Positions 5,364 to 6,471 of a stretch of 22,738 bases of DNA are shown in pieces; position 1 is the stretch's first letter, and each line of letters opens with the position of its first letter. The position numbers and the translations under genes were made by a program. Origin of the DNA: a virus; the UHGV virus genome UHGV-1639218; one strand, 5' to 3'. The notes beneath the pieces are model-generated. The model made no database searches, was not told the origin of the DNA, and saw only the letters and a program-made list of their open reading frames with translations.

Positions 5364-5400
5364 AAAACCCCGTTTGTTGGCACCAAGCGGGGTTTTGTGT
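5364..5400 (+). terminator. Hairpin plus U-tract downstream of the endolysin gene
   Basis: AAAACCCCG (5364-5372) pairs with CGGGGTTTT (5388-5396), with an internal TTGG/CCAA sub-stem, followed by GTGTTT. Confidence 0.5.
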
Positions 5401-5429
5401 TTCTGACCTTGAGTAAGGCAAGGGAGAAC

Positions 5430-5612
5430 ATGGCGAAGTATAAACGAATTCTGTTGAGGTTGACTATGAAAAATGGCCTTGAACTGAAAGCGCCTGTAAC
5501 TGATGACATCAGCAGAGCACTGGCTTTTGCCATTAAGTGGGTGGCGGTCGGTGTTGCTGTGTCCCCGATGCTGTATGGGCTGGCAAAACTGGTCATTGCG
5601 TTGAAATCGTGA
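5430..5612 (+). CDS. Small single-TM peptide A1 (60 aa; alternative start at 5466 gives 48 aa)
   Basis: ATG at 5430 preceded by GGGAG; alternative ATG at 5466 preceded by GAGG. Translation ..TDDISRALAFAIKWVAVGVAVSPMLYGLAKLVIALKS contains one TM helix. Its 3' 116 bp is duplicated at 5761-5877. Confidence 0.45.
   Translation: MAKYKRILLRLTMKNGLELKAPVTDDISRALAFAIKWVAVGVAVSPMLYGLAKLVIALKS
5497..5612 (+). repeat. Direct repeat copy 1 (about 116 bp, about 93% identical to copy 2)
   Basis: GTAACTGATGACATCAGCAGAGC...GAAATCGTGA aligned by eye with 5761-5877. Confidence 0.85.
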
Positions 5613-5626
5613 AGGGAGGATTAAGC

Positions 5627-5758
5627 ATGTCAGACAAACTCATAACGCTGGCGAAGATCCTCTGTGTAATTGTCGGCATTTCATTTTCACTAATGCTGGT
5701 TGCTCTTTTTCTGTCCCTCGCCTGGGTGATGTTGTCTTCGTCGGGGCTGCTGGGGTGA
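5627..5758 (+). CDS. Small single-TM peptide B1 (43 aa)
   Basis: Strong RBS AAGGGAGGA 7 nt upstream of ATG 5627. Translation MSDKLITLAKILCVIVGISFSLMLVALFLSLAWVMLSSSGLLG is almost entirely hydrophobic. Confidence 0.45.
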   Translation: MSDKLITLAKILCVIVGISFSLMLVALFLSLAWVMLSSSGLLG

Positions 5759-5877
5759 CAGTGACTGATGACATCAGCAGAGCGCTGGCTTTTGCTATTA
5801 AGTGGGTGGCTGTTGGTATTGCTGTGTCTCCGATGCTGTATGGGCTGGCAAAACTGGTCATTGCGCTGAAATCGTGA
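5755..5877 (+). CDS. Small single-TM peptide A2 (40 aa, paralog of A1), GTG start coupled to the B1 stop
   Basis: GTG 5755-5757 overlaps the B1 stop TGA 5756-5758 (GTGA), with GGGG 8 nt upstream. Translation (M)TVTDDISRALAFAIKWVAVGIAVSPMLYGLAKLVIALKS. Differs from A1 by 8 nt, 7 of them synonymous. Confidence 0.35.
   Translation: MTVTDDISRALAFAIKWVAVGIAVSPMLYGLAKLVIALKS
5761..5877 (+). repeat. Direct repeat copy 2
   Basis: GTGACTGATGACATCAGCAGAGC...GAAATCGTGA; 8 mismatches against copy 1. Confidence 0.85.
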
Positions 5878-5888
5878 ACTTTAAAAAG

Positions 5889-5975
5889 ATGAGTGCTGAA
5901 CTTATTCGGGCAATGGCATTTGCCATTCGTATTGTGGCCATTGCTGTTCTGGTCTGGGCAATCCGTTGGTGGTGA
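5889..5975 (+). CDS. Small single-TM peptide B2 (28 aa)
   Basis: ATG 5889; translation [28 protein letters not shown]. Stop TGA 5973-5975 lies immediately before the Rz ATG at 5977. Shares the MS.(K/E)LI start with B1 and the A(L/M)AFAI(K/R) core with A1/A2. Confidence 0.3.
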
Positions 5976-5976
5976 T

Positions 5977-6471
5977 ATGAACCGTGTTCTGTGTGTGGTG
6001 ATTATTGTCCTGCTGGTAGCCTGTGGTGTGCTTAGTCTGGGGCTGAATCATTACCGCGATAACGCCATCACCTACAAAGCGCAGCGCGATAAAAAAGTCA
6101 GTGAGCTGAAACTGGCGAACGCGACAATTACTGATATGCAGATACGCCAGCGTGATGTCGCTGAACTTGATGCCAGATACTCGAGGGAATTAGCCGATGC
6201 GAGAGCTGAAAATGAAACTCTGCGTGCTGATGTTGCCGCTGGTCGTAAGCGCCTGCGGATCAACGCCACCTGCTCCGGTACCGTGCGTGAAGCCACCGGC
6301 ACCTCCGGCGTGGATAATGCAACCGGCCCCCGACTGGCAGACACCGCTGAACGGGATTATTTCATCCTCAGAGAACGGTTGATGACAATGCAGAAGCAGC
6401 TGGAAGGGGCGCAGGAATATATCCGCACTCAGTGCACTAAGCTGGCTTTTTATTATCCGGAGGATACATGA
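5977..6471 (+). CDS. Rz: i-spanin Rz
   Basis: Internal ATG at 5977 of track ORF 5893..6471. Translation [39 protein letters not shown]...[23 protein letters not shown] matches lambda Rz almost motif-for-motif: N-terminal TM followed by a coiled-coil periplasmic domain. Confidence 0.85.
6197..6382 (+). CDS. Rz1: o-spanin Rz1 (lipoprotein embedded in the +1 frame of Rz)
   Basis: 61-aa ORF wholly inside Rz in the +1 frame. Lipobox LVVSAC, proline-rich mature region ([27 protein letters not shown]) matching lambda Rz1. Confidence 0.8.

Follow-up and report, generated by a model that had tools for sequence, protein, structure and literature searches.

How did four short open reading frames (ORFs) come to stand between the endolysin gene R and the spanin gene Rz of a lambdoid prophage, and what might their products do there? 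The question is raised by a 22,738-nucleotide (nt) stretch of the virus genome UHGV-1639218 (hereafter the window), which is the late region of an Escherichia coli lambdoid prophage and which carries, about 5 kb 3' of the antiterminator gene Q, an array of genes for small hydrophobic peptides, A1, B1, A2 and B2. An earlier note, made from the sequence alone, had read this array as a duplicated two-gene module, A-B followed by A-B, of four paralogues. The analysis reported here shows the interval 5397-5977 to be a mosaic in which small genes for single-pass peptides of the inner membrane are carried as accessory cargo between R and Rz, and comparison with related cassettes shows the four-gene layout to be a product of homologous recombination inside gene B, between a hairpin-A-B-Rz cassette and a C-B-A2-B2-Rz cassette. 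The array is thus a real finding and a more ordinary one than first proposed: two uncharacterised small-protein families and two 5'-truncated copies, joined by recombination and already present in databases.

All four ORFs are open on the plus strand exactly where the earlier note had placed them (Table 1). The GTG with which A2 starts at 5755 overlaps the stop codon of B1 (GTGA), the stop codon of B2 lies 1 nt before the ATG of Rz at 5977, and the Shine-Dalgarno sequence of B1 is strong (-11.3 kcal/mol, the best in the cassette). PHROG matches to each ORF place them beyond chance. The A frame is under purifying selection and the two other frames are not: A1 and the Salmonella gene are separated by 19 synonymous and 15 non-synonymous changes, with a ratio of non-synonymous to synonymous rates (dN/dS) of 0.20 against more than 1 in either other frame, and across comparisons the dN/dS of A ranges from 0.04 to 0.20. 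For B it is 0.18-0.56, and 276 phage records contain an intact gene of full length (65-95% amino acid (aa) identity), most of them from phages that convert their hosts to Shiga toxin (Stx) production and most of them without an annotation for it. Most records of Stx-converting phages contain B. AlphaFold predicts one long helix per peptide, in agreement with hydropathy. In the model of A1 (predicted local distance difference test score, pLDDT, 76) a basic amphipathic helix of residues 3-16 is followed by a long hydrophobic helix of residues 23-59 which holds the AFAI(K/R) core, and B1 (pLDDT 88) is a single helix of residues 2-38. The single hydrophobic helix is therefore common to the set, as had been claimed, whereas the core A(L/M)AFAI(K/R), also claimed for all four, is missing from B1. 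Profile hidden Markov models of PHROGs assign A1, A2 and B2 to phrog_1115, phrog_4493 and phrog_3246 over the helix with AFAI(K/R), with no match there for B1, and hhalign finds no relation between the profile of A and that of B (probability 0.3%). This means that the set consists of three A-family ORFs and one B ORF, not of two A-B pairs.

How these genes were joined can be read from the mismatches between the window and two kinds of cassette found in other phages, whose loci are cited here by L numbers. Against the A-B-Rz type (L005), 1 base differs over 5274-5712 and mismatches cluster 3' of that stretch; against the C-B-A2-B2-Rz type (L001), in which C is a third single-helix family (phrog_6632), six bases differ in 5649-5677 and then 1 base over 5678-6100. 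This pattern identifies the window as the product of a crossover that took place within B1, at 5678-5712. In the sister locus L037 the crossover lies more 3', between 5727 and 5746, which implies that the same joint was formed or converted more than once. An in-situ tandem duplication of an A-B module into four paralogues would account for a 118-nt direct repeat and for the alternating ORF lengths, yet it is refuted by the fact that each copy fits a different parental lineage, with the switch inside B1. The repeat is the only one in the DNA of the array, pairing 5496-5613 with 5761-5878 at 93% identity, and 8 of the 118 positions are changed between its copies, one of them non-synonymously and the other 7 synonymously (dN/dS 0.044). 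It also tells against duplication that B2 is an A-family fragment and no paralogue of B1, and that both parental cassettes are common while the exact layout is rare. Taken together, these points make the duplication model most improbable.

Among 5,426 complete E. coli genomes none has a full-length match to the exact four-gene layout, which was seen at 2 of 80 IMG/VR loci. DNA matching 5430-5990 is found in 1,804 of the same 5,426 genomes, so that about a third carry parts of the array, and the junction block B-A2-B2-Rz (5690-5990) is covered to at least 80% in 581. The slot between R and Rz is a mosaic site, and all intermediate layouts exist in other phages. The commonest among the loci retrieved with A1 is hairpin-A-B-Rz, a retrieval which biases the sample to this form; phage GER2 has hairpin-A_short-Rz, L057 has hairpin-A-B2-Rz, L001, L003 and L006 have C-B-A2-B2-Rz with or without an antirepressor-like gene (ant), and Stx phages have ant-B-Rz.

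The two ORFs that follow B1 are shortened copies of A. A2 is the 3' part of an A allele of the L057 type, from whose full-length A it differs at 3 positions of the common coding stretch, and it begins exactly at the start of the long helix. In B2 the last 19 residues are those of the full-length A_short of phage GER2, and the first 9 codons are old and diverged. It is quite possible, at rather less than even odds, that both are untranslated recombination relics which persist only owing to their young age and to the ribosome-binding site that B2, at its 3' end, supplies for Rz. The start signals would fit this explanation, as A2 has a weak Shine-Dalgarno sequence (-5.0 to -6.0 kcal/mol) before its possible GTG start, gene callers differ on where A2 begins, and B2 has no Shine-Dalgarno sequence at all (+0.3 kcal/mol), although its leader is A/U-rich and unstructured. 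The Shine-Dalgarno sequence of Rz, GGTGGTGA, lies within the WW-stop codons of B2, and the B-A2-B2-Rz block is so nearly invariant (655 records at 99% identity or more) that no selection after truncation can be demonstrated. On the other side, A2 and B2 each keep exactly the whole transmembrane (TM) helix, a short N-terminus of the form MSA(E/D)(L/F)IRA recurs with both C-terminal types, and the endolysin gene R likewise has no Shine-Dalgarno sequence (anti-Shine-Dalgarno pairing +0.6 kcal/mol). The RWW end of B2 is moreover kept in homologues with no Rz behind them (L096), which makes RWW a protein feature; the idea that the end of B2 is kept solely for the ribosome-binding site of Rz was dropped on this ground. 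The extreme form of the relic explanation, in which the whole array is without function, is excluded for A1 and B1 by purifying selection and ORF integrity. The description of the set as organised for translation in a late lysis operon stands, with the reservation that only A1 and B1 are full-length and that expression of A2 and B2 is uncertain. For B there are weak published signs of translation: the homologue XECs191 of O157:H7 Sakai was listed as a novel translated gene, with an RNA level of 30 reads per kilobase per million (RPKM), a footprint RPKM of 12.6 and a coverage of 0.55 in lysogeny broth (PMC5597208), and the same homologue was listed as the inner-membrane protein EDL933_1392 in a ribosome profiling (Ribo-seq) study of enterohaemorrhagic E. 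coli (PMC4765031).

A1 draws attention to a new feature of the family, as A appears to carry a conserved internal, and thus dual, start like that of holins. The first ATG (5430) is preceded by a Shine-Dalgarno sequence of -8.4 kcal/mol and an in-frame ATG at 5466, coding for Met13, by one of -6.3 kcal/mol. Met13 is invariant in 10 of 10 diverse A homologues, in 7 of which the GAGG before it is made from the rare Arg codon AGG. The strength of this internal signal is reached in 0.4-0.9% of synonymous recodings of the genes from the window, L090, L004 and L100, which share ancestry in this stretch so that their results are not independent, and in 2.9% of those of L099; the signal is above the recoding expectation at P = 0.004-0.03. 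The N-terminal extension, MAKYKRILLRLT, has by inspection four basic and zero acidic residues. The gene therefore has two conserved in-frame starts, each with a Shine-Dalgarno sequence, and the longer form is more basic at its N-terminus. A 48-aa or 37-aa form of A is annotated by many gene callers. The upstream extension is also kept as protein (KYKR..RL) and is brought into frame by two start arrangements, an ATG in the window and, in Salmonella and GER2, a GTG after an 8-codon mini-ORF. This mini-ORF (MCREVYSL or MGREVLSL; L090 3478-3504 in Salmonella and L004 ~1659-1685 in GER2) ends in TGTGA, overlapping the GTG of A, and is missing from the window, where a deletion of ~23 nt joins its ATG straight to the A frame. 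A small stem, CCTTG-loop-CAAGG at 5407-5423 of the window, pairs part of the A1 Shine-Dalgarno sequence and could be a translational control element; it recurs with different loops in L004, L090, L096b and L098 and is not clear in L094, L099 and L100.

The peptide genes are embedded in a complete lysis region (Table 1), in which the N-terminus of lysozyme R is weakly hydrophobic and 3' of which HNH, terminase, capsid and portal genes follow. No promoter-like site was found on the plus strand in 3400-7200 by a consensus scan, which can miss weak promoters. Having no promoter of their own and lying 3' of Q, the genes would depend for their expression on the late transcript that Q antiterminates and that also covers S, R and Rz. 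Their products are conserved, embedded in the late operon, closely spaced with Rz, and dispensable.

Table 1. Positions of the array genes and of neighbouring features in the window (SAR, signal-anchor-release).
Feature	Position	Strand	Match or remark
Q antiterminator	159-692		
NanS-p-like SASA esterase	1463-3424		followed by DUF826
Phage-21-type class II holin	4125-4340		PF04971 at 9e-33
DUF1327/YdfR-family gene	4345-4689		between holin and endolysin
SAR-type lysozyme R	4740-5273	+	5' border of the cargo slot; PF00959 at 1.3e-23
GC-rich hairpin	5364-5396	+	A-run before and U-run after (bidirectional terminator-like); -18.9 kcal/mol, z = -3.2
A1, full-length A-family peptide, 60 aa	5430-5612	+	phrog_1115 at 2.6e-42
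A1 from internal start Met13, 48-aa isoform (predicted)	5466-5612	+	Shine-Dalgarno GAGG at 5456-5459
B1, B-family peptide, 43 aa, nearly all one TM helix	5627-5758	+	phrog_4906 at 2.4e-22
A2, copy of a second A allele without its 5' part, residues 23-60 (TM helix only)	5755-5877	+	PHROG match at 6.4e-25
B2, 28-aa 5'-truncated copy of a short RWW-ended A allele	5889-5975	+	phrog_4493 at 3.8e-6
Rz inner-membrane spanin	5977-6471	+	PF03245 at 2.2e-49
Rz1 lipoprotein, embedded in Rz	6197-6382		ORF with lipobox LVVSAC

Searches of family libraries led to no characterised family. None of the four peptides has a significant match in Pfam, NCBIfam or PADLOC, Pfam giving none at E<=1 for A1, A2 and B2 and just a sub-threshold DUF3930 match for B1, and PHROGs offers only families without an assigned function. 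The earlier statement that the peptides are unrecognised is correct in so far as no holin, antiholin, spanin, defence or RNA-toxin family matches them; they are not unlisted, as PHROGs and RefSeq contain them, the latter through PGAP, which lists all four ORFs of a related genome as hypothetical proteins (B2 as WP_032140280.1). None of A1, B1, A2 and B2 matches a holin family of Pfam or PHROG. The peptides have neither the periplasmic domain nor the lipobox of a spanin, and with their tiny soluble parts and no DUF2730 match in Pfam they do not resemble releasins. Similarity to the YebO family, to which HK97 gp15 belongs, was not found in the Pfam scan, and no PADLOC model matched. With Rfam, a scan of 3000-8000 gave a single match, to rimP, which fell on the hairpin and was below threshold. 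In the literature no paper was found to discuss these proteins beyond the supplementary listings of the B homologue, and they are absent from reviews of the lysis cassettes of Stx phages.

The A family is narrow and its contexts are diverse. A profile search of 1.84 billion cluster representatives yielded 32 clusters. Protein searches place A in Escherichia and Salmonella, with source names of A_short clusters that also mention Citrobacter and Yersinia, and B only in E. coli; the species survey rests on these searches, as a scan of GTDB genomes with the A alignment gave pattern matches of which none was confirmed by tblastn. A tblastn search with A_short against the phage collection gave no match, probably due to the low-complexity filter. 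Four types of lysis cassette contain the family. In E. coli phages with an R21-type SAR lysozyme and Rz, A or B lies directly 3' of the endolysin gene. The Salmonella order is class II holin, SAR lysozyme, hairpin, A and Rz. Two contigs combine a soluble M15-peptidase endolysin with a short A (and B in one of them) and a 60-aa lipoprotein, and the GC-rich metagenomic phage L096 has the order capsid, A, A', holin (phrog_920), X, C and SAR-type lysozyme.

Several details of these contexts deserve mention in their own right. At 3001-4185 of L096 a true array of five small membrane ORFs, including a second A paralogue, follows the major capsid gene, and the GC content falls from 62-67% in the structural genes to 55% in the array stretch. 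Family C, with the core W(K/R)FLL(V/L)WLI and some members that end in RWW, is found at ~730-825 of L001, 1406-1501 of L003 and 3805-3903 of L096, directly 5' of B in the E. coli phages and directly 5' of the SAR-type lysozyme gene in the GC-rich phage. The lipoprotein of the M15 contigs (lipobox LVGC, phrog_7528; L102 831-1064 and L101 860-1042) comes right after short A or B, takes the position that Rz has in the window, and could be an outer-membrane lysis component. In L101, a contig with ambiguous bases, a 966-bp unit which holds short A, B (phrog_4906 at 3.4e-19), this lipoprotein and two further ORFs stands twice in tandem at 499-2439, as a real duplication or an assembly artefact. A 32-aa hydrophobic ORF, MAAMICFVAAFMLACDGRSGWGWFLLVGLIVM, at 3215-3313 of L090 overlaps the end of the Salmonella SAR lysozyme gene and is a candidate small membrane peptide of the same slot.

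What the peptides do has to be judged from these contexts, and the three functions suggested at the outset, a lysis-timing modulator, an exclusion factor and a small toxin, are all live hypotheses. Our best overall explanation, to which we assign a probability of about 0.45, joins the mosaic origin to a role as late-expressed, non-essential inner-membrane regulators of lysis. The regulator role itself is favoured tentatively, at less than even odds, on the strength of three points: repeated placement in lysis cassettes of four unrelated kinds, a dual start in the manner of holins, and the precedents of N4 gp62 and P1 LydC/LydD. The peptides would insert into the inner membrane with the N-terminus inside, and they may act through helix-helix contacts or by perturbing the membrane; A would be made as isoforms of 60 and 48 aa from its two starts, as in holin/antiholin pairs. 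Holin-like or antiholin-like tuning might then affect the time at which the pinholin fires, the release of the tethered endolysin or the action of the spanin, and A2 and B2 may be inert relics. That A, with B and C as partners, forms an unrecognised class of single-helix lysis regulators which come in two isoforms and act in trans is an unlikely extension of this role. Its targets would be the pinholin or one of two membrane anchors, that of Rz or the SAR anchor of the endolysin, and the hairpin might mark an antisense RNA that silences A in lysogens. The idea of a SAR-specific partner was dropped, since A and B also adjoin the soluble M15 endolysin.

A number of observations weigh against a role in lysis. 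No similarity of A or B to any holin or antiholin family was found, the B homologue has a weak Ribo-seq signal that was recorded in uninduced cultures, and no selection on A2 and B2 after truncation could be demonstrated. Position alone says little, because the slot holds an antirepressor gene in Stx phages, and its variable content, from ant-B alone to a single A_short, points to dispensability. Furthermore, A also occurs 3' of tail-fibre genes, where terminators flank it on either side (L094, L095, L097), after capsid-associated genes (L099) and upstream of a tape-measure gene (L100), locations which fit the cargo of a mobile moron that may serve some purpose other than lysis. The main rival explanation, doubtful in our estimate, sees in A, and perhaps also in B, peptides of the moron type for exclusion or host interaction, mobile cargo like HK97 gp15 for which the site next to Rz is merely tolerated. 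Such small inner-membrane proteins keep the DNA of superinfecting phages from entering or modulate a membrane protein of the host. At least four non-lysis positions in late operons are known for A homologues; the terminators around the L094 copy are the classic moron layout (PMC3594210), the L100 copy just before the tape-measure gene is near the position of HK97 gene 15, and highly mosaic alleles and tandem paralogue arrays, as in the window and L096, would be expected of arms-race cargo. The acceptance of an antirepressor gene into the slot is a further point in favour. Exclusion, however, needs expression while the prophage is repressed, and this is not evident, as no promoter-like site precedes the genes of the window or the copies in L094, L096 and L097. 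There is also no match to YebO, gp15 or PADLOC models, and the commonest location by far, in thousands of contigs, is within lysis cassettes of several unrelated types.

The hairpin that travels with A bears on the remaining candidate function. It was correctly seen by the earlier note after the endolysin gene, ends 33 nt before A1, and has a comparable counterpart 5' of the A start codon in 10 of 10 diverse contexts examined, with two-sided compensatory changes in 5 of 10 stem pairs; it is found at 3412-3445 of L090, 3439-3472 of L094, ~2940-2975 of L097, twice in L096 (~2935-2965 and ~3170-3200), and also in L098, L099 and L100. Its 5' A-run, which is a U-run on the minus strand, is always there, and L096a, L096b and L099 have a poor U-run on the sense strand, a pattern which hints at the termination of an antisense transcript. 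A -10-like hexamer of the minus strand lies at or next to a conserved Tyr codon in 10 of 10 loci, and in the window a promoter-like site in the first A codons has its -35 at 5466-5461 and its -10 at 5442-5437. A type I toxin-like module could be built from these parts, in which A is a depolarising toxin, a small hydrophobic peptide on a mobile unit, and a cis-antisense RNA runs from the first A codons to the hairpin at 5396-5364, covering the Shine-Dalgarno sequence and start codon of A1 as SymR does for symE. symE/SymR is a type I toxin system with an antisense RNA that overlaps the 5' end of the toxin gene. A resembles symE in being a small hydrophobic peptide with a structured leader, an antisense-facing terminator and a possible antisense promoter in its first codons. 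It differs in its promoter signal, which does not exceed what the coding sequence alone predicts, an antisense signal of the observed quality being reached by 19-94% of synonymous recodings; the signal was therefore downgraded and kept as a lead only. With no Rfam match, no sense promoter for a toxin mRNA and an unsuitable spacing of -35 and -10 in L098 and L099, a toxin module is very unlikely.

Comparison with studied systems helps to delimit the regulator reading. The holin/antiholin pairs S105/S107 of lambda and S68/S71 of phage 21, the latter with a homologue in the window at 4125-4340, are like A small, late inner-membrane proteins of the lysis cassette, encoded with two in-frame starts, each with its own Shine-Dalgarno sequence, of which the longer product is more basic at its N-terminus. 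In contrast, A has one TM domain instead of two or three, starts 12 codons apart instead of 1-3, a position 3' of the endolysin gene and no holin-family match, and it is dispensable, since the same cassettes exist without it. Closer in kind are N4 gp62 (PMC12642591) and P1 LydC/LydD (PMC9025707), accessory membrane proteins of systems with pinholin and SAR endolysin, which are non-essential and shift the timing or mode of lysis. N4 gp62 shares alternative starts with A but has 109 aa and two TM domains, P1 LydD is a pinholin, and neither system is homologous to A or B. For mycobacteriophage D29, a lysis regulator with one TM domain is reported to be encoded away from the lysis cassette, which softens the argument drawn from the non-lysis locations of A. 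HK97 gp15, a YebO-like small inner-membrane superinfection-exclusion moron (PMC3594210), is comparable to A as a small inner-membrane protein on a mobile insert of a lambdoid late operon, some A sites being terminator-flanked as well. A and B differ from it in having no YebO similarity and no detected promoter of their own, and in that most A and all B are located in lysis cassettes. The releasin gp25 of Mu, a DUF2730 protein of 99 aa with N-out/C-in topology and a 73-aa acidic cytoplasmic domain, controls the release of a SAR endolysin encoded a few genes away (PMC9239132). The likeness lies in a membrane-tethered accessory protein near a SAR endolysin; by contrast, hardly any of A or B is soluble, neither matches DUF2730, and A also occurs with the soluble M15 endolysin.

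The surroundings of the array hold some further elements. The DUF1327/YdfR gene is another conserved and uncharacterised insert of the lysis cassette. A 74-aa ORF at 6468-6692 begins at the stop codon of Rz (ATGA overlap) with a Shine-Dalgarno sequence of -9.5 kcal/mol, and since it matches only positions 100-172 of the 291-position phrog_2571 profile it may be a gene fragment. The motif GGCGGATAACAC(G/A)AAATCC, at 5310-5335 of the window and 3' of the endolysin stop codon, is kept in E. coli and Salmonella cassettes, where the Salmonella version is a perfect 7-bp hairpin, and also in Stx phages with ant replacing A. A small ORF at 5302-5355 is not conserved. The prophage small RNAs AgvB, AsxR and Pas map away from the array, between the esterase and holin genes; PasA, PasC and PasD of other E. 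coli were mapped to this interval in a 2026 preprint, and the Rfam scan found nothing in its equivalent in the window, 3424-4125.

The locus shows how recombination within a 129-nt gene can build an apparent gene array, and it is a warning against reading an array of paralogues as the result of duplication. If A and B do tune the timing of lysis, burst size would be affected and, in Stx phages, the timing of toxin release as well. Should the class of single-helix regulators prove true, it would add an extra layer of control to lysis by pinholin and SAR endolysin in about a third of E. coli genomes, Stx phages included. The dual start, the co-travelling hairpin and the wide distribution of these peptides make them a reasonable and cheap target for lysis genetics, which would need constructs of 40-60 residues.

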